64,000 nt of DNA from a bacterium (lineage in GTDB: Bacteria; Patescibacteriota; UBA1384; CAILIB01). The position numbers were made by a program, and so were the translations under genes. The stretch lies in NCBI GenBank assembly GCA_037131105.1, contig JBAXRQ010000001.1:830217-894216 (forward strand), written 5' to 3'. Below the pieces are notes generated by a model. It did not search any database. It was given only the letters and a program-made list of their open reading frames with translations, and was not told where the DNA came from. Below are positions 9,486 to 63,739 of this stretch, piece by piece. Within the stretch, counting starts at the first letter, position 1; every line of letters begins with the position of its first letter.

Positions 9486-11501
9486 TTAGAATCCGCTGTA
9501 AGGCTCAGAACTGTCAGTTGACGACGTATCCGTCGGACTATCGGTAGGCAGATCAGTAGGCTGGGCCGTAGGGGTAGGCGTTGGCGTGGGAGTAGCCTTT
9601 GCAGCCGGGACAGGCGTTGCCACCGCCACGGGAGCCGTTTGGTTGGTAACCTCGAAGTAGGCGAACGCCTTGCCCTTCTTGGCCTGGGCGTTGGTAGCGT
9701 CCTCCGCAAAGGCGTGCAGCGCATAGGCAGTACCATCCGAACTGTACTCATACCAGTAGGTATCTTTGAGGGGATCCACTGGCAGTTTTGACATGTACGT
9801 CGGCACCATGGCAGTAATCAGATCGGCACTAGCTCCGGTCTGAACCACGCCAGTTACCTTAGGATAAGCACCTGTCTTGGTTTTATACGCTTCCAGGGCT
9901 TTTTGCAAGTCATTCAGGTCGGCCTGACGCTGGGTATCTCGCTGGATGCCGGCGGTAGTGGCTGGAACCACTGGGAGCGGCGGTACCGCCGTAATGGCAC
10001 TTCCGGCCTTGGTTACTCCTTCGCCTGTAGGAACTATCACCACCGTACTTAGGTCATACGTACTGGGGATGTTGGTCAGGAGGATACCAAGCTGGGGAAT
10101 GAAGCCAGTGGCCTCCACCTGCTGTGGCACATTGACCGTGGAAGGTGTCAGCACGGCAGCCAGATTAGTGTCACTGGTTGCGGCTGGCAGAGCAGCATCC
10201 CATGACTTGTAATCATATGCCTCGGTCAGCTGGTAGCTACGCTGCTGGTAGCTGAACTTAATACTCAGGTCGGTATGCAAGGGCTGGGCGGTTTGCCATT
10301 GGTAATAGATGCCGAGAGTGGCAGTAGCGACGGTAGCTCCAGCAGGAAGAGAAACAGCCAACTTGCCACCATCCAGATTATAAGAATAATAAGCCACCTG
10401 CTGGCCCGCCATTTTCTGATAGGAAGTCTCCTTAGTAACTGCAGCGAGAAGCTGGGTCAGCGGCGCCGGCTGCAAGGCAGGGAAGAGTAGACTCTTAGGT
10501 ATACCGTCGGCCTTCACGCTCACCAGGGGATTGCCCGTGTTAGCCGGAAGATTAACCAGCCATTTGCCGTCAAATCCGGTCGCCTTCGTATTTAGATAGA
10601 TAGGCAGCTCAGCGGCAGTATCAATAGTAAGGCCAAGTTTGCCAGAGAGGCCGGCGGCCTTCAAGTCATAACGCAGCGGGTTGGCCGCAGTAATAGCAGT
10701 CTTAATAGTGCCAATGCTATTGCTGGCACTACCAGTATTTCCAGGCAGCGTACTTCCGCTGACCTCGCCTCCGACAATTGCAGTGGAGCCGTTCTCAAGA
10801 TAGGACTGTTTGCCGCCCACATAGGTAGCCGCCTTTCCAGCAACCGCCAAACCGTCGGGACTCAGGCCACTGGCCAGTGAATAGAAAATGGGTAATCGGC
10901 TCCCGCCCAGGGCCAGCACATAGCCCCCGCCCGAAAGCACCACCAGGGCAACGAACAAGCCAACACCGGCAATCAGGCCGATGGAAGGACGGTGGCGGGG
11001 TGGCACGGCTGCCGAAACGGGCGTAGTTGGAACGCCCCGAGGTACCGCCTGCGGTCTTAGTGCGCTTGTCGCTGGTACAATCCCCGGAGATACTGCAGGA
11101 TGCCCAGGCACGATAAGGGGAGGCCCGGCAGGGGCGGGTGCTGCCACCGGAGCAGTCACAGAAGCAGCGACAGGAGTAGTCACTGGGATAGCTGGTGGAG
11201 GCGAAGCAGGCGCCGAAGTACCCAGGCTACGTTTCTTCAGTACGTTCATCGGGCTTAGAGCAGCCAGCTCACGCTCATCGGCCTCCACGTCATCATCCAA
11301 AGGAGAAGATCCGGTAGATGCTGCCACAGGAGCAGTTACGGGGGGTGTTTCCGCAGGCATAGCTACGGGGACCGTCACAGGGACCGTCACCGGAATTGAG
11401 ATCGGTTGGCCAGGCACTACTGGAGTAGCTGGCACAGCCACTGGCACAGCAGGTGGAACGCTGCCGGGAGCCGCATCGGAAGACGATGGGAAAGGAGGCA
11501 T
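9486..11501 (-). CDS. Large Pro/Ala/Thr-rich membrane protein with embedded T2SS-GspG-like pseudopilin domain
   Basis: 671 aa. Low-complexity PVT repeats, one TM helix, and a C-proximal segment (DLQKALEAYKTKTGAYP...YWYEYSSDGTAYALHA) that resembles the GspG/type IV pilin globular domain. Confidence 0.55.
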   Translation of the reverse strand: MPPFPSSSDAAPGSVPPAVPVAVPATPVVPGQPISIPVTVPVTVPVAMPAETPPVTAPVAASTGSSPLDDDVEADERELAALSPMNVLKKRSLGTSAPASPPPAIPVTTPVAASVTAPVAAPAPAGPPLIVPGHPAVSPGIVPATSALRPQAVPRGVPTTPVSAAVPPRHRPSIGLIAGVGLFVALVVLSGGGYVLALGGSRLPIFYSLASGLSPDGLAVAGKAATYVGGKQSYLENGSTAIVGGEVSGSTLPGNTGSASNSIGTIKTAITAANPLRYDLKAAGLSGKLGLTIDTAAELPIYLNTKATGFDGKWLVNLPANTGNPLVSVKADGIPKSLLFPALQPAPLTQLLAAVTKETSYQKMAGQQVAYYSYNLDGGKLAVSLPAGATVATATLGIYYQWQTAQPLHTDLSIKFSYQQRSYQLTEAYDYKSWDAALPAATSDTNLAAVLTPSTVNVPQQVEATGFIPQLGILLTNIPSTYDLSTVVIVPTGEGVTKAGSAITAVPPLPVVPATTAGIQRDTQRQADLNDLQKALEAYKTKTGAYPKVTGVVQTGASADLITAMVPTYMSKLPVDPLKDTYWYEYSSDGTAYALHAFAEDATNAQAKKGKAFAYFEVTNQTAPVAVATPVPAAKATPTPTPTPTAQPTDLPTDSPTDTSSTDSSEPYSGF

Positions 11502-41594: not shown

Positions 41595-43244
<1,650 letters not shown>

Positions 43245-48980: not shown

Positions 48981-51665
48981 CTATTCATTACTGGGGAAGG
49001 CCTGGTTAGCCAATGTCTCAAAGCGTCCAAACTGTAACCGGGCCAGCAACTTGGCATCCCCAGTCGGGCCGTTACGGTGCTTCCTCACCATCACTTCCAT
49101 GAGGTTGTTCTGCTCGTCCTTGTTATAGTAGTCGTCGCGATACAGGAACATCACCACGTCAGCGTCCTGCTCAATCGAATTGTGGACGACGATGTCATTG
49201 GCAACAAAGTTATGAGTTCCGGGAACTGTTGCGTCAAACACTTCTTCTACTGCCAGCGGAGTAATACTAGTAATTTCATCCCAATACAGATCGGAGTCAG
49301 CCAAGACCCCAAGATAACGACTACCGACTATCTGTGCAATTCGTCCTAGCCGCTCCCTGCTCACTCCGCTCTTAAACAAGGCTGATCCGGCGTAGGACAT
49401 TCCCATACTTGCCTGTACGGCTCTCCAGCTCAGCCCTGACGCCACTTTGGCCGGGATGATCAGCTGTTCCCAGATTGAAAGGTCGAGGGTATCGGTATTA
49501 GGATTGCCTTTTAAGCCAGCAAGCAACTCCTTGCACTGGCTAACGTTCTCTCCCCTGCGGCCATGACAGCCAACAGCGGCGAGAAATATTTCCTGGTTTG
49601 CCTTGCCTTGCACTTCTACATGATAACTTGGACGAAACGTCTTAGCTCCCTTGACCTGGGGAACCTGACGAAGGGTAGCCTGCATTCCCACCCGTAATAA
49701 TAGATGCTGCACCTGTTCCGCTAGAATCGGGCTAGTAGTAGCATAGTATATCGAGACCTTGTCCCTGGCTACGGACAGACATCCGTCAGTTGCCCACAAG
49801 TGATGCAGGAAGAGGGCTACCTGGGAATTTGAACAGCTGAAGAGACTGGCCGGCAGCTTTTTCTCATAGGAACGCGCCAATCCCAACCCCTCAGATTCCA
49901 ACCACTTTAGAAACGGATGCTTCTTACCTCTGGCATTACGATACGGACTAGGAAGATACAGATGATACCAGCTCTTCTGAGCAACCTGACGAGGCTTAAT
50001 CCCGTAAAGTATTGCAGTGGCATAGGCTACCGCTTCGATATTAGCTGGGTCATTACTCGTGTAATGCACCGGCTGGTGAGATACGTAGCACCCATCCCCC
50101 ACCATATGGGCCAGGAATGTCAGCTGTTCATCGCTATAAGAGGTGTTATCGGCAAGATTGCTAGGGAACTGACGTGGCAGGGCTAGTTTCTCGCCAATCT
50201 TAAGATTATCGAGGGATTGCCATTCAGTATACGTCTTGAACTTATGGTTAGCAGAGGCTTTGATCGTCCTACCGGAGCGGAACTTCAGCTCATATGTCTG
50301 CTTATAACCACTGGAGAATACTTTGGAAGCCGTCTTACGAACAATCTTATACTCCTCATCCATGCTCCACACCGGCACGTTAGTCTGACCTACCAGATCT
50401 TTGATCATTACGCGCTCACCAGTATCAGCTCTCTGGATAAGGGTATCGCCGGTCAAACAGCCACTTTCTCTTAGGTCCGACAGCAGCGGCCGCTTGTCCG
50501 GGCGCGACTCCACCGCACGGGAGAGCTGCGACAGGGCGATCACCGGACAGTTGATCTCTCGGGCCAGGGCCTTTAACGAGCGGGAGATTTCCGAGACTTC
50601 CTGTACACGGTTGTCGCTATTGCCTTTCGCGGTTCCCTCCATGAGCTGCAGGTAGTCCAATACTATGAGGTCAAGACCGTACTCAGCCTGCAGACGTCGA
50701 GCCTTGGCGCGAACCTCCATGATATTGGCCGAAGGGGTATCGTCGATGAACAGGTTGGCTTCGGCAAGTATTCCGTAGGCCTCGTTCAGGTTACGGAAGT
50801 CCTCGTCATTCAGCTTGCCGTTACGCAGCTTCCAGCTGTCGATCTGGCCAATAGAGGAAATGAGACGATCCACCAGCTGCTCCTTGGACATTTCCAGGGA
50901 GAAGATGCCCACCGACTTCTTCTGTTGCACGGCCACGTTCTGGGCGATCTGCAGGGCGAAGGCCGTTTTTCCCATCGAAGGACGGGCGGCCAGGATGATC
51001 AGGTCAGACTGCTGCAGGCCACCCAGGATATTGTCTATGTGCTTGTAGCCGGTCGAAAGGCCGCGCATAGTCCCATCCTGCTTGGACAAGGCATCCAGCC
51101 GCTCGAAGCTGTCGGCCAGGATGCTGCGGACCGGGATGAAGTTCTGCTTGAGGAAGCGCTGGGTGACGGCAAACAAGGCCTGCTCGGCCTGGTCCAGAAT
51201 GACGCTTGACGGCTCGTCCTCACGGAAGCCCAGCTCGCTGATCGAGCCGGCCGCGGAGATAAGGCGGCGCAGCATGGCCTTCTCCCGGACGATCTGGGCG
51301 TAATGCTGGACATTGGTGGCAGAGGCCACTGAGCTCACCAGGCTGGAAAGCTTGGCCGGGCCCCCTATCTGGTCCAGCTTCTTCACCCGGGCCAGCTCGT
51401 CGGCCACCGTCACCAGGTCGATGGGCACCCGCTTCTCTGAGAGAACCACCATGGCCTCGTAGATCGCCGCGTGGTCAGGGCGGTAGAAGTCGACGGCAGA
51501 CAGTATGTCGATGACCTTCAACATCGCCTCCACATCGAGAAGCAAGGCCCCGATAGTGGAGACCTCGGCGTCGATGTTCTGCGGGGGCATCCGGCCGGCC
51601 ACCTGGTGAGGGGTCAGCGACGGGGCCTCCTGCTGGTAGTTCTGACGAGAACCAGTGCGGGCCAT
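48981..51665 (-). CDS. dnaB: Replicative DNA helicase DnaB interrupted by an intein
   Basis: 894 aa. Exteins carry the DnaB motifs (ARPSMGKT; DLRESG|SIEQDAD). The insert lies at the canonical DnaB intein site. Confidence 0.9.
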   Translation of the reverse strand: MARTGSRQNYQQEAPSLTPHQVAGRMPPQNIDAEVSTIGALLLDVEAMLKVIDILSAVDFYRPDHAAIYEAMVVLSEKRVPIDLVTVADELARVKKLDQIGGPAKLSSLVSSVASATNVQHYAQIVREKAMLRRLISAAGSISELGFREDEPSSVILDQAEQALFAVTQRFLKQNFIPVRSILADSFERLDALSKQDGTMRGLSTGYKHIDNILGGLQQSDLIILAARPSMGKTAFALQIAQNVAVQQKKSVGIFSLEMSKEQLVDRLISSIGQIDSWKLRNGKLNDEDFRNLNEAYGILAEANLFIDDTPSANIMEVRAKARRLQAEYGLDLIVLDYLQLMEGTAKGNSDNRVQEVSEISRSLKALAREINCPVIALSQLSRAVESRPDKRPLLSDLRESGCLTGDTLIQRADTGERVMIKDLVGQTNVPVWSMDEEYKIVRKTASKVFSSGYKQTYELKFRSGRTIKASANHKFKTYTEWQSLDNLKIGEKLALPRQFPSNLADNTSYSDEQLTFLAHMVGDGCYVSHQPVHYTSNDPANIEAVAYATAILYGIKPRQVAQKSWYHLYLPSPYRNARGKKHPFLKWLESEGLGLARSYEKKLPASLFSCSNSQVALFLHHLWATDGCLSVARDKVSIYYATTSPILAEQVQHLLLRVGMQATLRQVPQVKGAKTFRPSYHVEVQGKANQEIFLAAVGCHGRRGENVSQCKELLAGLKGNPNTDTLDLSIWEQLIIPAKVASGLSWRAVQASMGMSYAGSALFKSGVSRERLGRIAQIVGSRYLGVLADSDLYWDEITSITPLAVEEVFDATVPGTHNFVANDIVVHNSIEQDADVVMFLYRDDYYNKDEQNNLMEVMVRKHRNGPTGDAKLLARLQFGRFETLANQAFPSNE
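49179..50459 (-). mobile_element. DnaB intein (427 aa) with LAGLIDADG homing-endonuclease domain
   Basis: Begins with Cys (CLTGDTLI) and ends ...VVHN before the +1 Ser. Two LAGLIDADG-like blocks (LAHMVGDGCY, LHHLWATDGC). Coordinates come from the ORF track and are ±2 nt. Confidence 0.8.
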
Positions 51666-55410: not shown

Positions 55411-55521
55411 CGAATCGTGTATGTGCACCATCCCCGCCCCGCCATTTCCAAGGAAGTGGCGGGGATGTTTTTTGGCTTACGAGAAGGGGAAAATGTGGTA
55501 CGTTGGTATAAATTCTCTATC

Positions 55522-56301
55522 ATGTCCACCTCTAAAGAACATACTCCCGGTGAAAAAATACGCGAGCTCCGTAAGGAGAGAGCTCTTTCTATTGAGGCAC
55601 TGGCCAATGAAGCGGGCATAACAGCGGTGGCACTAAGTAATATCGAGACAAAACAAGCACATCCACAGCGCAACACCCTTCTAAAGCTGATAAGGTGCTT
55701 GGAAAATGTACTGTCACTTTTACCAAGTATCAGAAGAAGCCTGGTGTACTCCTATGGTTATACCGACGTCTACGACGCCCCAACCCCTCCTGAAATAACC
55801 ACGGCGATAACTGCCTGGGAACTCCAGTTCAAGAACACCTCCTTCCCCGCCTATGTCATCGATATGACGATGAAAATTCACACGGCAAACCGTGCCATGC
55901 TAGGTCTCATGGACGAATCTGGCCAAGCTCGCACAGACCTCTGGGTATACGACCTAATTTTCTCCCCACCCCTTAAAAAGGGGCTACGGTTAGAAGGCAC
56001 CTATCAACTAACCTATAACTTGGTGGCATACATCTGGTTTGATCATCAGCCCTATTTTCGAGAATCCTGGTGGCAGGAAAGCCTTCTTAAAGGCCGTAAG
56101 AAGTACCCTCTTTTCGGAGAACTAATCGATGGCTTCTCCAGTGGTACACTCCCATTGCCGGAACTTGAGACCATGGAACCAGTCACCTTCACACTTGCTG
56201 ACGGAAGCAAGCTCACTTATGGCATACTCTCGGCAAATGTAGTTGAAGATCCACGGTTTAGAAGTATCCAATTCATCCCTATGGGCCACGAAAAGATATA
56301 G
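55522..56301 (+). CDS. MmyB-like transcriptional regulator (XRE HTH + MmyB-like C-domain), paralog 1
   Basis: HTH_XRE (GEKIRELRKERALSIEALANEAGITAVALSNIE) and a C-domain with KYPLFGEL. The track ORF starts at 55417; I prefer the internal Met. Confidence 0.6.
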   Translation: MSTSKEHTPGEKIRELRKERALSIEALANEAGITAVALSNIETKQAHPQRNTLLKLIRCLENVLSLLPSIRRSLVYSYGYTDVYDAPTPPEITTAITAWELQFKNTSFPAYVIDMTMKIHTANRAMLGLMDESGQARTDLWVYDLIFSPPLKKGLRLEGTYQLTYNLVAYIWFDHQPYFRESWWQESLLKGRKKYPLFGELIDGFSSGTLPLPELETMEPVTFTLADGSKLTYGILSANVVEDPRFRSIQFIPMGHEKI

Positions 56302-56796: not shown

Positions 56797-57621
56797 TTGG
56801 AAAAAACTTACCCAGATATGGCAGTAGCCCTGTTCCTCACATCAGGAGAAAAGATACGCGAGCTCCGTAAGGAACGCGGCCTTTCTATTGAGGCACTGGC
56901 CAATGAAGCGGGCATAACAGCGGTGGCACTAAGTAATATCGAGCTGAAGTCAGCCGCTCCGCAGCGCTCAACCATACTCAAGCTTCTTGACTGCCTCGAC
57001 TCAACACTTCCCATACCCGTGGAGAAACGTCGCGAGATTACCGATGCCTTTGGCTACATAGATATACCTGGCGTCCCCAACCAGCACGATATCGACAAAG
57101 CAGTACAGGCATGGCAAAAGCCATTCAAAAACACACCCTATCCAGCCTATATTCTTGACCGCGTTCAGCGCATCCATGACTGGAACGATCAAATGCTGGC
57201 CTTCATCGGTGAGGACATACAAGACCTGAAGGGCAGGACCATATTCGACCTGCTATTCGACGGGCGTTCCCGCGGCGTGGTGAATCTGGTCAATGAAGAG
57301 GAAGTAGTCACAAAGATGGTCAGGCACATGCGCAAGGAGTACAGGCCCTATATGGATGAGGAATGGTGCAAGCAATGCCTGGCAGATGCCCGGGCAAAGT
57401 ACCCTCTCTTTGGCGAGCTGTTTGACACTCTCCCCGACGAAGGCTCTCCCGCCCTTGACCTAAGGGCTACCGGCCCGATCATTCTCCGGGACAAGGAAGG
57501 CCACACCCTTCATTTTCAAATAGTAGGTATCGACCTCATAAGCGACCCCCGCTTCGGCGTGGTGCAGTACATCCCCCTGGATAAGGAGACTGCCCAGATC
57601 CTCACCAACCTCTTCAGCTAA
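56797..57621 (+). CDS. MmyB-like transcriptional regulator, paralog 2
   Basis: Same architecture as 55522..56301. Shares an identical ~64-nt HTH-coding tract with it. Confidence 0.6.
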   Translation: MEKTYPDMAVALFLTSGEKIRELRKERGLSIEALANEAGITAVALSNIELKSAAPQRSTILKLLDCLDSTLPIPVEKRREITDAFGYIDIPGVPNQHDIDKAVQAWQKPFKNTPYPAYILDRVQRIHDWNDQMLAFIGEDIQDLKGRTIFDLLFDGRSRGVVNLVNEEEVVTKMVRHMRKEYRPYMDEEWCKQCLADARAKYPLFGELFDTLPDEGSPALDLRATGPIILRDKEGHTLHFQIVGIDLISDPRFGVVQYIPLDKETAQILTNLFS

Positions 57622-57754
57622 ACGCGGAACGATTCCTAACGGCTATATTGACATTTCCCAGGTTACGTGCTACTATGCATCCGCCCATTAAACCTGAGTG
57701 AAGTAGATCGCAGGCGCCACCATGGCGCCAGATCAGATTTGAAAGGACAGAAAA

Positions 57755-58726
57755 GTGAGACTTGCAACTTGCAGTCTAATGCTCGCGCTGTTTCTGATGG
57801 CGAATGTCGCCCAGTCACAGCAGATCGACCCGTCGTTCCCCCTTTTGGGAAAGACGTACGGACCGGCCGGGATCTATATTCCGGACGCAGTGGGGATTTC
57901 AAACACCTCTCTGAACCCAGCCCGGCAGATGTCAATCACCGACATCTCTGCGAATAACCAGGTTGTTGAAGGCGATTTTGGTCGACTCAGCCTGGCCAAC
58001 AGCAACGCCGACTGGGAAATCGGCAATTACAGCTTCGTCAGCAAAGACCGTCGGGCAGTGGGACGCATTTCCTGGAACCACTTCACGGTGGGCCACGGGA
58101 TAATACCCGCGACAGATCCGGCCGAGATCGCCATGCGCGGAGACGCCTGGGAGCTGATAGGCGCATACCGCGTCAATAAGCACCTCGACGTTGGCGGCGC
58201 GATAGTTCCCGAGGACGCCACCCACTCCAGTCTGCAGCTCCAGGGTCAGACCCTGGCTTCAGGAGGCAGCAGGTCGCAGCGTCAGGGCCGAGTAGGCGCC
58301 TACTACCATGCTGGCAAGCTGGGTCTGGGTTACGAAGCAGGCTGGGAACGAGGTGTCGTTAGTAGCAGCATTCTTGGCAACGCACCGGTCAGCTCCGGAT
58401 ATAACCAGGATCACACCACCTACGGTGCCTCCTGGAGCCCGAAGCTGGGAACGACGGCGTTCTATAACCGCCAACGTTTCAACCTCAAGAATGAAGCGCT
58501 GGGCCTCGTGACCAAGACGGACTATTGGGGCGTCCAGCAGGCGCTCAGCCGCAAGGTAATCGCCCAGATTGCCCGCTCGGACAAGGCCACCGCACTTTCA
58601 GCAACCTGGTTGCCGGACGACCGCTATGGCCTGAACGTTTCATATACCAACAGGGCGTTCAGCACCTCGGAAGCAGCTTATGGCAAGGGCAACCTTACAT
58701 TCGTGAGCCTGTGGAAGAGCTTCTGA
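57755..58726 (+). CDS. Secreted Gly/Ser/Tyr-rich beta-barrel-like (porin-like) protein ending in Phe
   Basis: Signal peptide (ANVAQS|QQ). Amphipathic beta-strand-like composition. C-terminal ...TFVSLWKSF. Confidence 0.4.
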   Translation: MRLATCSLMLALFLMANVAQSQQIDPSFPLLGKTYGPAGIYIPDAVGISNTSLNPARQMSITDISANNQVVEGDFGRLSLANSNADWEIGNYSFVSKDRRAVGRISWNHFTVGHGIIPATDPAEIAMRGDAWELIGAYRVNKHLDVGGAIVPEDATHSSLQLQGQTLASGGSRSQRQGRVGAYYHAGKLGLGYEAGWERGVVSSSILGNAPVSSGYNQDHTTYGASWSPKLGTTAFYNRQRFNLKNEALGLVTKTDYWGVQQALSRKVIAQIARSDKATALSATWLPDDRYGLNVSYTNRAFSTSEAAYGKGNLTFVSLWKSF

Positions 58727-58870: not shown

Positions 58871-58907
58871 TAACCTGATTGACAGGTTAAATAAACTATG
58901 CTACTAT
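58871..58907 (+). promoter_or_regulatory. Consensus sigma70 promoter (TTGACA-17-TACTAT) overlapped by palindrome TAACCTG-N5-CAGGTTA
   Basis: -35 at 58879..58884 and -10 at 58902..58907. The inverted repeat at 58871..58889 covers the -35. AAGGAGG RBS, then the GTG start at 58938. Confidence 0.55.
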
Positions 58908-58937: not shown

Positions 58938-59564
58938 GTGAAGACGTTACTGGAAACAGACAACGGGATGTGCGTGGTTCAAGCCACCACAGCTCCCGAA
59001 GTCGAAGAACTGATCAGGCTTTTCGAAAAGATCGCCGAAGAGCAACACTGGCAGCCAGGGGACCAGCTACGCGCCTACCCCGAGTCCTCTATTCACTTCG
59101 GACTTATGGCCGGCACAAGTTTTATCGGCGGCCTACAGCTCGTTCTGGGAGGAAACAGTAAGGAAGGTATGCCCTGCCTCACCGTATGGCCAGAACTTGA
59201 CCTGAGATACCAAACCGATGTTGCTGACATTGCCTTGCTTGCTCTCGATGAAAAACATCGCGGGCAAAACGAGCTCTTCTGGCCACTCTGCATAGAAATG
59301 TGGAGATACTGTGAACGGGCAGGAATCACTCGGCTGATGGTTGAGGCAACACGTGAGAAGCAAGTGCTGTACAGGCGGTTCGGATGGCCCCTCAAGGCTG
59401 CCGGCGAAGTCCGACTCCATTGGGGAGAACCCTGCCAGCCCTGTTGGATGACCACAGCAGAAATCAATACAGAAATGGCGACAAAAAGTTCGCGAGGGAG
59501 CCTAAAATATGCCACCATCTTTTCCCTGATGCACCGCATCAGGGACTCTGACGAACGACCCTAG
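58938..59564 (+). CDS. GNAT-fold acyltransferase, autoinducer-synthase/N-acyl-amino-acid-synthase-like
   Basis: 208 aa with a LuxI/FeeM-like sequence pattern (IRLFEKIAEEQHW ... RLMVEATREKQVLYRRFGW). Family assignment is tentative. Confidence 0.45.
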   Translation: MKTLLETDNGMCVVQATTAPEVEELIRLFEKIAEEQHWQPGDQLRAYPESSIHFGLMAGTSFIGGLQLVLGGNSKEGMPCLTVWPELDLRYQTDVADIALLALDEKHRGQNELFWPLCIEMWRYCERAGITRLMVEATREKQVLYRRFGWPLKAAGEVRLHWGEPCQPCWMTTAEINTEMATKSSRGSLKYATIFSLMHRIRDSDERP

Positions 59565-59582
59565 CAAGTCGTTCGTTTTTGG
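59551..59582 (+). terminator. Rho-independent terminator
   Basis: ACGAACGAC-cctagcaa-GTCGTTCGT followed by TTTTGGTTT. Overlaps the stop codon. Confidence 0.6.
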
Positions 59583-59635: not shown

Positions 59636-60481
59636 ATGGCAAAGAATGTCTCCAGAATCCTGAGTACCGCTGTAAGTCCGTACGACGAGTACTGCACGGG
59701 TTTTGGCATGCTTCCAGAAAGCACGTACATCACCACTCCTCTTATCGCAACCGGCGTCGCAGACATTGAATGCGCCCACGGCGGCTCAGACATACTAGAC
59801 AAGATTGTTTCCTTCGACCGTGCCGAAGGTGAATACGCCAATATCACTCAGACCAACATGGTCACCGTATCCTCATTCAACGGCATAAACGGCGCCATTC
59901 TTGGCTACGATTTTCTCAAGCAGAACATTCGCCCCTATCATCTTGTCGATCCTGAGAAGTATCCAAATGTCTATGACGCTGAGCCCCTCTTTAAGGCAAC
60001 CCAGGCGCTCTATGGCACCATAAAGGAAAAGCACTTCCCCATTGCCCCAGGCCAGCATATCCTTTGCGCCTATAAGAGCCTCTACAAGAACGGCCCCTGC
60101 ATGATGTACGGCGCCCTTGCCATTGCTATCGCCAAGGACCGTGAGCACAACGCCGATCTTTACATGGAGGATCACGGAACAGTCCTCGCAACCCATAGCC
60201 GAGAGGCAAATCTGGAGCAGCAAACCACCATTATCGAAAGCCTGCTGCTTTCAGTAAAGCGTATTTCTGAAAACCTGAACGTGGAGTATGAAAAAATCTT
60301 CATTGGCTTCAAGTGTAAGAACGTTCAGTCTGGCCAGGTTGGCTGTGTGATTACGGCCGCCCCCTATATTCATCTTGCCAAGAATGCAATCCCTAAAGGG
60401 GATATTCCAGCGCTTGAACATATGAGTCTTTCTGACTGGCAAAGCCAGGTCAGTGGCTCATATATGAACCAACCCGCCTGA
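59636..60481 (+). CDS. hdcA: Pyruvoyl-dependent histidine decarboxylase proenzyme homolog (HdcA family)
   Basis: Block-wise match to Lactobacillus 30a HdcA as I recall it (IVSFDRAE, NMVTVSSFNG serinolysis site at Ser79-Ser80, ILGYDFL, ITAAPYIHL). Confidence 0.75.
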   Translation: MAKNVSRILSTAVSPYDEYCTGFGMLPESTYITTPLIATGVADIECAHGGSDILDKIVSFDRAEGEYANITQTNMVTVSSFNGINGAILGYDFLKQNIRPYHLVDPEKYPNVYDAEPLFKATQALYGTIKEKHFPIAPGQHILCAYKSLYKNGPCMMYGALAIAIAKDREHNADLYMEDHGTVLATHSREANLEQQTTIIESLLLSVKRISENLNVEYEKIFIGFKCKNVQSGQVGCVITAAPYIHLAKNAIPKGDIPALEHMSLSDWQSQVSGSYMNQPA

Positions 60482-60492
60482 CACACTAAGGT

Positions 60493-62700
60493 ATGGCCTA
60501 TCTCATCACAGGCCTCTATTGCTTCTGCCTAGCCTTTCTAGTGGCTTCAGCGCTATTTATCTATTTCAAAAACTCGAAGTCTTGGCTGAACCGCTATTTC
60601 CTGCTCTTAAGTGTCTCAATATTCGCATGGCTACTCACCCTCTACTTTTTTGATCGGCAGGCAGATTCATCCCTATTAACTCTCCTGGGCCGCGCCAACT
60701 TTACTTCAGCCGCCTTCATCGTCCTCTTTAATTATCTTTTCACTCCCCAGGTAGTAGGAGAACGCTCAAAGTGGACATGGCTGCTTGTGGCAGAGACCGT
60801 CATCCTTGCGGGCCTTACACAGTTTACAGGACTTATTGACCATAGTGAGCACCTAAAGGATGGCCAGCACATCACCCAGTTTGGTCCTCTTTTTCCATTC
60901 TATATCGTCCATATCGTCGTATACGTCCTCGTGGCGCTCTACCTTACCTTTTTCGCCTACAGGAAGGTCAAGGCAGCCGTTCGTAGCCAGCTCAACATCA
61001 TCGGATTCGGTGTGTTTCTCATGGCAGGCATAGCCATCTTCACCAATATCATTCTCCCCTACGGATATAACTTTTTTGACTTTCAAGAGGTAGGAGCACT
61101 TTCAACCACCTTCTTCCTCCTTGCAATAGCGTACGCCATTAGCGCCCATCACCTGTTTGATATCAGAGTAATCATCAAGAGAACGGTAATCTACACCGGT
61201 CTCCTGATCTTTGCCCTGCTGACATACAGCATGGTCATCTTCTTCTTTACCAACCTGTTCGGCGGCAATGGAAGCGCCTTTGACACCCGCAACTTCCTGG
61301 TAAACCTCCTCGCCGCCGGCCTCATCGCCGTAGGCTACGACCCACTGCGCCGCACCCTGGAGGACAAGACCGACTCCTTCCTCTTCAAGAAGGAATACGA
61401 GGAGCAGGCCGTACTGAACGAACTGGGCCGCAAGCTAAACGACGTAGTCGCCCTGGACGAGGCGCTTGACCTGATGATGCAGACCATTGTGAAGGTCTTC
61501 CACCTTCACCACGCTGTCACCTTTGTCTTCCAGCCGGCTGAAAACAGCGAGGTGGCCATCAAGCGGATCAAGCAGATCGGCTACACCAGCATGAACCACG
61601 TCTACCTGAACGACGACGACTTCACCATCAGCTACTTTAGTAGCCATCCTGGCGTCACCCGCCTCGACGTGCTGAACCAAGAGACTGAGGAGGAAAAGCG
61701 CCGTTTCAGCAATCTAAGCAATGGCAATACCAAGAGCCTTCCCAAAGAGACCAGTCACCTGATCCGCCAGCATGCTATCAAAGTAGCCGTCGCCAAGAAG
61801 CTTACTGATCTAAGCGCCGCCCTGGCTATTCCTCTTCACCTGAACCAGCAGCCCATCGGCCTTATCCTGCTTTCGGACAAACTCTCTGGCGACACCTTTT
61901 CCCCTGAGGACGTGACCCTTCTAGATACCATGGCTACCCAGGCCATCTCCTCCATCCAGAAGGCTAAGCTCTACGAAGGTGATCAGATGAAGAGCGAATT
62001 CGTCTCTATCGCCTCTCACGAGCTATTAACCCCGGTCTCTGCCATGGAAGGCTACCTCTCCATGATCTTGGATGAGAACATGGGTAAGGTGGACGCCCAG
62101 GCTCGCAACTATCTGGATAAGGTCTATATCTCTTCCAAGCGCCTCTCCGCCCTGGTTAAGGACCTGCTCTCCGTCTCACGTATCGAAGCTGGCCGCATGA
62201 AGATGGAACCCCAGTCACTAGACATGAATAAGCTTATCCATGACACCATGGACCAGTTGAAATTCCTGGCTGAGAACAAGAAGCTCAAGATGACCTACAA
62301 GGCTGCCGACAAGGCCCTACCCCCTGTCTGGGCTGACTCTGACCGTACCATGCAGGTATTGGTCAACCTGGTAAGCAATGCCATCAAGTACACTCCAAAG
62401 GGTGACATCGTCATTACCGCTAGCCACAGCCTGCAGCCCACCCCTCATGTCCAGGTTTCAGTCACTGATACCGGCCTCGGTATCAGCAAAGCTGCTCAAG
62501 CCCACCTCTTCGAGAAGTTCTACCGCGTCGCCACCCCGCAGACCACCGGTATCGTCGGCACCGGCCTAGGTCTCTATATCACCAAGTCGATCATTGAGAT
62601 GATGGGCGGGGTCATGACCCTGAAGAGTACCGAGGGCAAGGGCAGCACCTTCAGCTTTACCCTGCCCACCTTTAAGGTGGAGAAGTCCAGGCCAGAGTAA
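60493..62700 (+). CDS. 7TM-GAF sensor histidine kinase
   Basis: N-terminal 7 TM helices, a central GAF-like region, HisKA (SIASHELLTPVS) and HATPase_c (GTGLGLYITKSIIEMMGG). Confidence 0.85.
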   Translation: MAYLITGLYCFCLAFLVASALFIYFKNSKSWLNRYFLLLSVSIFAWLLTLYFFDRQADSSLLTLLGRANFTSAAFIVLFNYLFTPQVVGERSKWTWLLVAETVILAGLTQFTGLIDHSEHLKDGQHITQFGPLFPFYIVHIVVYVLVALYLTFFAYRKVKAAVRSQLNIIGFGVFLMAGIAIFTNIILPYGYNFFDFQEVGALSTTFFLLAIAYAISAHHLFDIRVIIKRTVIYTGLLIFALLTYSMVIFFFTNLFGGNGSAFDTRNFLVNLLAAGLIAVGYDPLRRTLEDKTDSFLFKKEYEEQAVLNELGRKLNDVVALDEALDLMMQTIVKVFHLHHAVTFVFQPAENSEVAIKRIKQIGYTSMNHVYLNDDDFTISYFSSHPGVTRLDVLNQETEEEKRRFSNLSNGNTKSLPKETSHLIRQHAIKVAVAKKLTDLSAALAIPLHLNQQPIGLILLSDKLSGDTFSPEDVTLLDTMATQAISSIQKAKLYEGDQMKSEFVSIASHELLTPVSAMEGYLSMILDENMGKVDAQARNYLDKVYISSKRLSALVKDLLSVSRIEAGRMKMEPQSLDMNKLIHDTMDQLKFLAENKKLKMTYKAADKALPPVWADSDRTMQVLVNLVSNAIKYTPKGDIVITASHSLQPTPHVQVSVTDTGLGISKAAQAHLFEKFYRVATPQTTGIVGTGLGLYITKSIIEMMGGVMTLKSTEGKGSTFSFTLPTFKVEKSRPE

Positions 62701-63266
62701 TTACGCCCCTACGGGGATATCCCGGGAACGCAGAAACTCGGCCGCTTCCTTACGGGTCACCGACTTATTGGCAGTCAGCCTGATAATAAAGGGCTCGACA
62801 CCGTCTATCGTGGCTAGTCGAAGGGCGTACAGTCCAGAGATCATTTCATTGGCCTACACCTCTTCCAGCCTGTCGGCAAGATCCTCTACTCTAGAGTATT
62901 GTTTGAAGGCCAGACCTGAATCAAAATCAAGATCACGGTCTTCGTTAATCTCAAGACTGAAGAGTTTCATAGCGCTGAAAGTGACCTGGTTTTCATAAGA
63001 GTGCCAACCCCAAGCGAATCAGTGGCCCATTCAAGGACCTCCCCTTCCGAAATCAGCTTGGGCAAATATACTACGAAGACGGTGTCCACATTGTCCATAG
63101 TGCCAATTTCAATTACCCCCTCAGATAGAGCCAGACTAGTCCGAGCCATACGCAAGGCCTCGAAAAGATCACCCTCGTAAGGCTTTTCAAGATAGAAGAT
63201 CGCACGCTTTTCTGTCTGAAAAAAGGTAGGCATGGTAAAAGTTACTTGAATAATAGCATAAGCCAA
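62701..63266 (-). pseudogene. Fragmented gene (three consecutive reading-frame pieces)
   Basis: A 99-aa ORF followed, across one frameshift and one stop, by 38-aa and 50-aa coding-like pieces. Confidence 0.3.
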
Positions 63267-63346: not shown

Positions 63347-63739
63347 ATGCCTGCAGAAGGAACCACCATATTGCTAGCTGAAGACGACATCATCCTGGCC
63401 GAGCTCTACACTGAGCGCCTTAAGCAGGAGGGATTCAACGTATTGCACGCCGCTGACGGCGAGGCCGCCCTGAAGTTCGTCAAGGAGGACCATCCTGCCC
63501 TGGTTATCCTGGACATCATGATGCCGAAAATGAACGGACTCGATGTACTAAAGCAGATGAAAGAGGACCCTGCTACTAAGAACATCCCGATAATCGTGGT
63601 CACCGCCCTGGTTCAGGAGATCGAGAAGATCAGCAAGATGATGACCCAGGCCGACGCCTACATCGTGAAGTCCGAAGTACTACCCGGAGAGATCATTGAG
63701 CAGGTCAAGAAGCGCTTGGAGGCAGTCCAGGCCGCCTGA
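63347..63739 (+). CDS. Stand-alone response-regulator receiver (CheY-like)
   Basis: EDD...ILDIMMPKMNGLDV...K pattern with no output domain. Confidence 0.8.
   Translation: MPAEGTTILLAEDDIILAELYTERLKQEGFNVLHAADGEAALKFVKEDHPALVILDIMMPKMNGLDVLKQMKEDPATKNIPIIVVTALVQEIEKISKMMTQADAYIVKSEVLPGEIIEQVKKRLEAVQAA

Follow-up and report, generated by a model that had tools for sequence, protein, structure and literature searches.

A pyruvoyl-dependent decarboxylase of the histidine decarboxylase family in a conserved cassette with an acyltransferase-type protein and a HisKA_7TM sensor kinase

Results and Discussion

Gene arrangement at the locus

Within a stretch of 64,000 nucleotides of the bacterial contig JBAXRQ010000001.1 (positions 830,217 to 894,216 of its forward strand; this whole stretch is called the window in the following), the gene at positions 59636-60481 encodes a protein of the pyruvoyl-dependent histidine decarboxylase (HDC) family. 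It stands between the gene for a FeeM-like acyltransferase and that for a sensor histidine kinase, and a response regulator gene follows further downstream. The features of this group, in window coordinates, are:

58938..59564, plus strand: FeeM-like acyltransferase with predicted GNAT (GCN5-related N-acetyltransferase) fold, 208 aa, GTG start codon, AAGGAGG Shine-Dalgarno sequence; the proposed N-acylating enzyme
59550..59577, plus strand: 10-bp hairpin with T-run (pattern match only), the stop codon of the FeeM-like gene (59562-59564) lying in its loop
59636..60481, plus strand: pyruvoyl-dependent decarboxylase proenzyme of the HDC family, 281 aa, ATG start codon, GAGG Shine-Dalgarno sequence
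59870..59875, plus strand: codons for Ser79-Ser80, the predicted serinolysis site, aligned to Ser81-Ser82 of the crystal structure 1PYA
60493..62700, plus strand: sensor histidine kinase, 735 aa, with HisKA_7TM (residues 12-224), a GAF-like region, HisKA (499-567) and HATPase_c (615-726)
63347..63739, plus strand: receiver-only response regulator, 130 aa, with no output domain (Pfam Response_reg, E=2e-23)

The window protein as a predicted pyruvoyl decarboxylase

The product of 59636-60481 matches the Pfam family PF02329 (HDC) with E=2.1e-48 and 165.4 bits at a cutoff of 25, over positions 7-289 of the 294 in the profile, far beyond what chance would give. In the Protein Data Bank (PDB), the Lactobacillus 30a enzyme (entries 1PYA/1HQ6) is matched in both chains, the alpha chain with E=8e-18 and the beta chain with E=8.5e-5, and the chain boundary of 1PYA aligns precisely to Ser79|Ser80 of the window protein. 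The translation around this site reads ...ANITQTNMVTVSS|FNGINGAILGYD..., with the residues Ser79-Ser80-Phe81 and the motif FNGING after the break. Residues 1-79 form the predicted beta chain and residues 80-281 the predicted alpha chain, and Ser80 would become the pyruvoyl group after the predicted cleavage. No signal peptide was found in the protein. The Ser-Ser pair is invariant in 35 of 35 aligned family members, an alignment from which the Rhizobium plasmid match L041 was left out because it has no clean open reading frame (ORF). A serinolysis site at Ser79-Ser80 flanked by HDC-like sequence blocks had been the starting point of the original prediction for this stretch, and both the Pfam match and the 1PYA chain boundary confirm it.

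HMMER alignments and the alignment of 35 sequences were used to map the active site. The 1PYA residues Ile59 (I57 in the window protein), Asp63 (D61), Glu66 (E64), Phe83 (F81), Lys155 (K147) and Glu197 (E178) are retained, while Tyr62 is replaced by Phe (F60) and Phe195 by Tyr. Note that Ser81/Ser82 have been described as the cleavage pair of HdcA, Ile59 as the lid of the pocket, Tyr62/Asp63 as ligand-binding residues and Asp53-Asp198 as a pH switch (PMC8465708). Across 29 homologues with a linked kinase gene the active-site residues are invariant or nearly so; the equivalents of Ile59, Asp63, Glu66, Ser81 and Phe83 are invariant in this clade and common to true HdcA, and position 195 is occupied by Tyr, Leu or Met. 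From the work of Gallagher et al. in 1989, Glu197 is said to be the proton donor in HdcA, with Lys155 nearby. The comparison with characterised HdcA thus went the way that the original prediction had anticipated, with the cleavage serines and all mappable active-site residues conserved (Tyr62 being changed to Phe), and by its sequence the window protein has the appearance of a functional pyruvoyl decarboxylase whose pocket is of the histidine type.

A separate branch of the HDC family

The NCBI entry for the identical protein, on a contig of 949 kb, carries the name 'MAG: histidine decarboxylase, pyruvoyl type [bacterium]' (MAG, metagenome-assembled genome). With the NCBIfam equivalog model TIGR00541, however, the window protein scores 157.3 bits at a cutoff of 346.65, and its identity to HdcA from Tetragenococcus and L. 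reuteri amounts to 30-31%. Proteins that fail the equivalog test are given the label 'histidine decarboxylase, pyruvoyl type' and such annotations are therefore to be read with caution. HdcA from Lactobacillus saerimneri 30a (1PYA/1HQ6), Tetragenococcus and L. reuteri shares with the window protein the family PF02329, the position of the Ser-Ser pair and the catalytic residues, but it has 311-316 aa and is encoded in an operon with an antiporter, HdcB and histidyl-tRNA synthetase (HisRS), whereas the window protein, with 281 aa, is about 30 residues shorter and lacks this company. Within 10 kb of the window gene in both directions there is no hdcC/hdcP antiporter gene, no hdcB and no hisS; the Tetragenococcus and L. 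reuteri reference hdcA loci carry antiporter, hdcB and hisS. The Asp53-Asp198 pair of the pH switch is likewise not kept, with Ser51 at the position of Asp53 and D179 at that of Asp198, in a gapped loop alignment that makes this a weak test. The pyruvoyl-dependent arginine decarboxylases (PvlArgDC/AaxB, PF01862) are distant superfamily relatives that give a secondary Pfam match to residues 135-245 (E=1.5e-6); the arginine decarboxylase model TIGR00286 yields only 18.5 bits at a cutoff of 107, a match much weaker than that to HDC.

The phylogeny of the family, computed by neighbour joining only, places the kinase-linked sequences and one archaeal sequence apart from canonical and proteobacterial HDCs, at a bootstrap value of 99%. 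On the opposite side of this split stand Tetragenococcus, L. reuteri, Salipiger, Methylocystis and the kinase-less gammaproteobacterial locus L021. The subclade with FeeM-type partners, which holds the window protein, is supported at 100%, and the kinase-linked group without the archaeon at only 55%. Gene context and phylogeny thus agree. Judged by scores, tree and neighbours, the window protein is not an HdcA orthologue but part of a distinct branch within the family. The description as 'HdcA-type' in the original prediction holds for family membership and for the serinolysis site; it does not hold for orthology, given 157 against 346.65 bits, the identity of 30-31%, the lack of antiporter, hdcB and hisS, and the 99% split.

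The archaeal sequence comes from a Methanophagales archaeon (L033, 5998-6867). It keeps the Ser-Ser pair and Asp63, has Ser in place of Lys155 and Gln in place of Glu197, has no kinase or acyltransferase neighbour, and may be a catalytically altered relative. Three other HDC-family proteins (P0250, P0263 and P0310) begin with a signal peptide, that of P0250 being twin-arginine-like, an indication that the family has secreted or periplasmic representatives.

A gene cassette conserved across phyla

The comparison covered 54 distinct HDC loci, of which GTDB species representatives contributed 30 and metagenome contigs 24. ORFs in all six reading frames were compared with the window proteins, and also with profiles derived from the matches. 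Flanks were considered adequate with at least 900 nt upstream and at least 1200 nt downstream, as is the case in 37 of the 54 loci. The separate kinase-linked HDC branch accounts for 50 of the 54. Three homologues with 54-63% identity to the window protein lie in the same tight, co-directional trio of genes for a FeeM-like protein, an HDC-like protein and a HisKA_7TM kinase, in otherwise unrelated surroundings. An acyltransferase-type partner and a protein with a 7TM (HisKA_7TM) domain are both present in 33 of the 37 loci with adequate flanks. The partner is FeeM-like in 16 of these, where it adjoins the HDC gene as it also does in further loci at contig ends, and belongs to a second type, termed 'PPWNE', in the other 17. 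Neither partner is found in three loci (L021, L033 and L063), all of them phylogenetic or identity outliers, and a single locus (L052) has the FeeM-like gene only.

The genes are tightly spaced. The usual distance from the HDC stop to the kinase start is -17 to +50 nt, such that stop and start codons may overlap; in the window the kinase ORF begins at 60493, in agreement with the 11-nt gap given in the original prediction. In the Actinomycetota loci the kinase gene is convergent, on the opposite strand, and still directly adjacent to HDC. A receiver-only response regulator gene after the kinase was found in 9 of the 54 loci (the window, L003/4, L013, L014, L017, L020, L061 and L065), and genes beyond the cassette vary from locus to locus. 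The cassette occurs in Candidate Phyla Radiation (CPR) bacteria, Armatimonadota, Actinomycetota and Gammaproteobacteria; it is conserved across phyla, and the adjacency of kinase and HDC is not incidental. The context of the window gene, previously singled out as unusual, is indeed so; the kinase is no mere curiosity of one genome, though, since its 7TM domain and the upstream acyltransferase are conserved partners in 33 of 37 loci.

The searchable literature, which leaves out most subscription journals, yielded no account of this cassette. A PADLOC search for known defence systems gave no match for FeeM-like protein, HDC and 7TM protein, and its remaining matches were generic ones to kinase and receiver. 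In an earlier survey of GTDB for pyruvoyl HDCs an antiporter next to the gene was a precondition (PMC8465708), and the branch linked to acyltransferase and kinase would therefore have been excluded. The enzyme is a new subfamily of a known family, and the cassette would be a new instance of the known theme of a synthase next to its sensor, with components that had not been linked before.

The exceptional locus L052 (3594-8857) is the sole flank-complete locus with FeeM-like and HDC genes and without a 7TM gene. Its cluster contains a fragment of a class I/II aminotransferase (by eye similar to AONS/CqsA), an apparently frameshifted gene of a FadL/Toluene_X protein, a fatty-acid channel of the outer membrane, and a second, genuine N-acyl amino acid synthase (NAS) of PF21926, as well as a PQ-loop-like protein with three transmembrane (TM) segments, a zinc ribbon and a PW·E motif. 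By its gene content this lipid-type cluster supports a lipidic product of the FeeM-like/HDC pair.

The acyltransferase-type partners

For the window FeeM-like protein NCBIfam gave no match, nor did a sequence search of the PDB with the FeeM-like profile. A model was calculated with AlphaFold2 (AF2) from 37 homologues, with a predicted local distance difference test (pLDDT) value of 94.9. As evidenced by a Foldseek search with this model, the top matches are six chains of FeeM (2G0B; E=3e-9 to 5e-8, TM-scores of 0.69/0.78), followed by generic GNATs and by the acyl-homoserine lactone (AHL) synthases LasI (1RO5) and BjaI (5W8A). On the strength of the model, the window FeeM-like protein is one of FeeM/LuxI-like GNAT fold. 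FeeM, LasI and BjaI share this GNAT-derived fold but only 14-16% sequence identity with it. Most of its homologues have a precomputed match to PF21926, and the subfamily comprises 41 proteins in a collection of 5.8 billion, 12 of which have a longest contig of the same length as that of an HDC homologue.

FeeM is a carrier-protein-dependent GNAT that produces long-chain N-acyl amino acids, and the canonical P-loop motif for coenzyme A (CoA) is Q/R-x-x-G-x-G/A (PMC11685415). By eye this motif is missing in the FeeM-like sequence, which reads ...EKHRGQNELF.... Unlike FeeM and the AHL synthases, the window FeeM-like protein is partnered with a decarboxylase and has no adjacent carrier-protein gene; from the decarboxylase partner it follows that the likely acceptor is an amine, and not an amino acid or S-adenosylmethionine.

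The PPWNE partner represents an unannotated family of 186-337 aa, encoded upstream of HDC in CPR bacteria, Actinomycetota and Gammaproteobacteria. It is characterised by the motif F(A/G)EPPWNE(S)W and a block DE·AI···FRGG···L·RP·LE···G···WT, and some members have a zinc-ribbon insertion. In the metagenomic protein P0251 (483 aa), a PPWNE partner (residues 6-186, E=2e-44) and an HDC (residues 209-478, E=3e-103) are fused within one ORF. By the reasoning applied to such fused sequences, this is Rosetta-stone evidence that the PPWNE partner and HDC act together.

The sensor kinase and its membrane domain

All three Pfam domains of the window kinase score above their cutoffs, HisKA_7TM (PF16927) with 41.7 bits (cutoff 28.6), HisKA with 59.3 (26.9) and HATPase_c with 95.4 (26.4). 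The N-terminal membrane domain extends over approximately residues 1-290 and exceeds the Pfam match by additional hydrophobic segments at about 226-255 and 266-282, for a total of about 9 TM segments. Hydropathy analysis shows some 8 clear hydrophobic segments in the first 255 residues, and the one at about 266-282 was recognised by eye. The distribution of positively charged loops suggests a topology with the N terminus outside, the C terminus inside and short loops. The domain is homologous in 46 partner proteins, with conserved positions F36, W46, G66, R67, N69, T112, E119, G131, G173, N185, P189, Y214, A215, D223 and R225. Receptors for hydrophobic signals, LuxN, CqsS and AgrC among them, typically have such short loops and conserved polar residues.

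In 33 of the 37 adequately flanked loci the gene of the 7TM-domain protein stands directly downstream of HDC, and in 31 of these 33 complete cassettes the domain forms the N-terminal input part of an entire histidine kinase. Versions with the 7TM domain alone do occur, as detailed below; the domain is therefore the most constant element, and the kinase output is usual but not obligatory.

The receiver-only regulator at 63347..63739 is the probable cognate partner of the window kinase. Related receiver-only genes, encoding 121-141 aa where the ORF is clean, directly follow the kinase, and in the window 646 nt separate the two. This gap holds three small ORFs on the minus strand (47, 38 and 88 aa, within 62701-63233) with no family match.

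Host and spread of the family

The rest of the window is occupied by housekeeping genes, for a GatA-like amidase, LigA, RecG, MetRS, UvrD, GroEL, an intein-bearing DnaB, TrpRS and a pilin-like protein. The GroEL encoded in the window (41595-43232, minus strand) shares 84% identity with a protein named 'Patescibacteria group bacterium', matches with a name at about 69-70% come mostly from Berkelbacteria, Uhrbacteria and Patescibacteria, and several related contigs have a size of 0.5-1 Mb. A host with CPR-like traits, as had been proposed from the nucleotide sequence, is borne out by this GroEL and by the 949-kb source contig. An armatimonadotal host, the label of the nearest GTDB-labelled cassettes, was ruled out by the GroEL search.

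The pyruvoyl HDC family as a whole is represented by 348 sequences among 1.84 billion cluster representatives. GTDB genomes with relatives belong to Armatimonadota, CPR3, Shapirobacteria, Saccharibacteria, Parcubacteria, Levyibacteriota, Nealsonbacteria, Actinomycetota and Gammaproteobacteria and include the Methanophagales archaeon, and alphaproteobacterial plasmids hold annotated HDC copies. Clusters of pyruvoyl hdcA and antiporter have been reported from six phyla (PMC8465708). The idea that the family is rare outside Firmicutes was therefore only partly right: the family as a whole is rare, but CPR bacteria, Actinomycetota, an archaeon and plasmids carry it too. Note that MAG taxon labels may include binning errors. 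The FeeM-type cassette is present both in Patescibacteria (the window, by its GroEL) and in MAGs labelled Armatimonadota, which points to horizontal transfer or to such errors. In one GTDB MAG, labelled 'uncultured Paludibacter sp.' (L028), the kinase ORF scores identically to those of L005/L006 and comes from a different sample.

A proposed pathway and its alternatives

Family membership, residue conservation, the acyltransferase fold, the conservation of the cassette and one fusion are established, and the pathway that we propose goes beyond them. The proenzyme would cleave itself at Ser79|Ser80 to leave an N-terminal pyruvoyl group on the alpha chain, and the mature enzyme would decarboxylate a free cytoplasmic amino acid. 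Most probably this is histidine, yielding histamine, because the aligned ligand-binding and catalytic residues of HdcA are kept and Asp63 is invariant. The FeeM-like GNAT would move an acyl group, probably from an acyl carrier protein (ACP) or a similar thioester, onto the amine to form an N-acyl amine; decarboxylation would have to precede this step, since the alpha-amino group with which a pyruvoyl enzyme forms its Schiff base must be free. The amphiphilic product would partition into the membrane and be bound by the polytopic N-terminal domain of the kinase, which in turn would signal via the receiver-only regulator, in a synthase-plus-receptor circuit of the autoinducer kind. For this full model of an amine made by the decarboxylase, its N-acylation and sensing by the membrane domain, in which we infer cleavage, substrate, acyl donor, product, ligand-receptor relation and output, we see a chance that falls a little short of even. 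The specific proposition that CPR/Patescibacteria, Armatimonadota, Actinomycetota and other uncultured bacteria share an undescribed signalling system, with an N-acyl histamine-type or related acylated amine sensed by a domain of about 9 TM segments, is put forward more tentatively still, as a possibility that has the greater weight of probability against it.

The LuxM/LuxN, CqsA/CqsS and AgrBD/AgrC systems of quorum sensing resemble the cassette in that genes for the synthesis of a small hydrophobic or amphiphilic molecule stand beside that of a polytopic histidine kinase with short loops, in an operon-like arrangement with a regulator. The cassette differs from pairs of the LuxM/LuxN type in its enzymes, a pyruvoyl decarboxylase and a GNAT, in the HisKA_7TM domain, in the receiver-only regulator and in the existence of kinase-less versions.

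A number of observations weigh against the signalling circuit or against single steps of it. The loci were retrieved with patterns from the window clade, so that the sample is biased towards this clade. In two loci (L009 and L036) the FeeM-like and HDC genes are accompanied by a 7TM-only protein without a kinase domain, and five distant FeeM-like genes (about 40% identity; P0078, P0082, P0087, P0090 and P0094) have no HDC nearby and a stand-alone HisKA_7TM protein of 305-341 aa downstream. The latter follows the FeeM-like gene directly in four of the five, about 1 kb and two small minus-strand ORFs intervening in the fifth (L069), and it aligns end-to-end with the membrane domain of the kinases, ending at the cytoplasmic linker. 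A receptor without output fits sensing poorly, and the membrane domain may instead act in export, in immunity or as a partner of the enzymes. The acyltransferases raise their own difficulties. The window FeeM-like protein scores 26.2 bits with the Pfam FeeM family PF21926 (E=8e-6), slightly below the cutoff of 27. The PPWNE family gave no significant Pfam match with 10 and then 20 members, and its profile retrieved from the PDB only sub-threshold acetyltransferase matches with E=0.58 and 0.96. When it was compared with the FeeM-like family in hhalign, its conserved block aligned to the β4-α3-β5-α4 core, at a probability of 1% with small alignments and 13% with deeper ones, and the AF2 model of the fusion protein P0251 is confident for the HDC half only, the PPWNE half remaining below a pLDDT of 50. 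Lacking a Pfam or PDB match and having this weak link to GNATs, the PPWNE partner makes the term 'acyltransferase' unproven for about half of the cassettes. A simple motif scan found no ACP-like ORF in the 64-kb window. CPR bacteria are usually without fatty-acid synthesis, and the acyl donor is therefore uncertain. The hairpin at 59550-59577, finally, lies between the FeeM-like gene and HDC and may act as a terminator or attenuator; related loci have no such gap, their FeeM-like and HDC genes overlapping or abutting.

The kinase-less versions are better accommodated if the genes form a membrane-lipid or antibiotic module, the product being an N-acyl amine or aminolipid, the 7TM/9TM protein an exporter, insertase or immunity factor, and the fused kinase a reporter of load or membrane state. 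Both the five contigs in which a kinase-less 7TM protein accompanies the FeeM-like gene and the two in which it accompanies FeeM-like and HDC genes fit this explanation better, and so does the L052 cluster with its FadL protein, second NAS and aminotransferase-fold enzyme; several of the minimal modules moreover lie in mobile-element contexts. Products of the FeeM type, long-chain N-acyl tyrosines, are said to have been found first as antibiotics, in the environmental DNA work of the Brady laboratory. Against this, the fusion of the 7TM domain to a full kinase in 31 of 33 cassettes and the receiver in nine loci constitute the architecture of a sensor, and the 7TM domain matches a Pfam family that was defined on kinase N termini and no transporter or enzyme family. 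On balance we regard a lipid or antibiotic module, the main rival of the proposed pathway, as unlikely, albeit with enough in its favour to be kept in view. Amine homeostasis or detoxification, where the kinase would sense external histidine, histamine or pH and the acyltransferase would inactivate histamine by acetylation, draws on the conserved histidine-binding residues and the adjacent two-component system, and GNAT enzymes commonly N-acetylate biogenic amines. Yet the cassette has no conserved transporter, be it a histidine/histamine antiporter or another, and consequently there would be no proton-motive or pH benefit, the closest fold is that of the long-chain, carrier-protein-dependent FeeM, with AHL synthases and not amine acetyltransferases among the matches, and FeeM-like/7TM pairs occur without a decarboxylase. 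As Ser51 furthermore takes the position of Asp53 in the pH switch (for its role see PMC8465708), this explanation appears improbable to us.

Two further alternatives concern the enzyme itself. It might be a classical HdcA, serving acid resistance or energy conservation by histidine/histamine exchange, that was transferred into a CPR genome among unrelated neighbours. The catalytic machinery is the same and the NCBI label reads accordingly, but the score below the equivalog cutoff, the identity of 30-31%, the 99% bootstrap split, the lack of hdcC/P, hdcB and hisS within 10 kb and the conservation of the neighbours across phyla leave very little room for this view. Alternatively, and independently of the proposed pathway, the logic of the cassette might be as described with another substrate, for example a side-chain-acylated basic amino acid, and a product that is not based on histamine. 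The identity to characterised HdcA is only about 30%, Tyr62 is changed to Phe and Phe195 to Tyr, Leu or Met in the clade, and no characterised member of the clade was found in the searchable literature. Still, the imidazole-binding Asp63 as well as Ile59, Glu66, Ser81 and Phe83 are invariant and shared with true HdcA, and we consider a different substrate a rather poor prospect.

The pyruvoyl HDC family has so far been studied only as an antiporter-coupled enzyme of histamine formation, acid stress and food spoilage, and the link of the present branch to an acyltransferase-type gene and a polytopic membrane domain points to a biosynthetic or signalling role. Should the kinase indeed sense an acylated amine, this would constitute a new signal chemistry or class of autoinducers and would propose a class of ligands for the uncharacterised HisKA_7TM domain. 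CPR bacteria are mostly uncultured and often episymbiotic, and the cassette, with its three or four genes, is small; if the proposed circuit is true, it would be a rare concrete lead on how these organisms sense their neighbours.

Further features of the window and of related loci

Upstream of the cassette the window contains:

55417-56301 and 56797-57621, plus strand: two paralogous helix-turn-helix (HTH) regulators with a MazG-like gene between them, the second with an MmyB-like ligand-binding domain
58879..58907, plus strand: promoter-like element TTGACA-17 nt-(TG)TACTAT (consensus match only), about 30 nt upstream of the FeeM-like gene

Domains of the MmyB-like type have been linked to lipid-like ligands. 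It is uncertain whether the pair of HTH regulators belongs to the cassette; a similar, MLTR-like neighbour was found only in L011 (CPR3). The promoter-like element occurs twice in identical form, as ATTGACA-N17-TGCTACTAT, at 58879-58907 and at 57648-57676 before the gene of a 323-aa protein. An Rfam search of the window returned one tRNA only and no riboswitch near the cassette.

The 323-aa protein (57755-58726, plus strand) has an N-terminal signal peptide, alternating patterns reminiscent of beta-strands and the C-terminal sequence ...LWKSF. It gave no match in Pfam, NCBIfam or the PDB and was not found beside other cassettes. It resembles a beta-barrel of the outer membrane, a type of protein that one would not expect from a CPR bacterium.

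The four minimal loci whose DNA was read (L066-L069) all have a small XRE-type HTH gene divergent upstream of the FeeM-like/7TM module, and the same divergent HTH gene precedes many full FeeM-type cassettes, though not that of the window. Minimal modules of this kind are often located among genes of mobile elements and conflict systems (MobA/ArdC, integrase, resolvase, CHAT, caspase-like peptidase C14, Fic and PIN).

Elsewhere in the window, the gene of the DnaB helicase (48981-51665, minus strand) harbours an intein that includes a LAGLIDADG homing-endonuclease domain, and the orthologue in the related contig L003 is intein-free. A 670-aa protein (9486-11501, minus strand) has a C-terminal T2SSG/pilin-like domain as its sole recognisable part. 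On the contig of L003, type IV pilus genes (pilMNO, T2SSE/F) adjoin the cassette.

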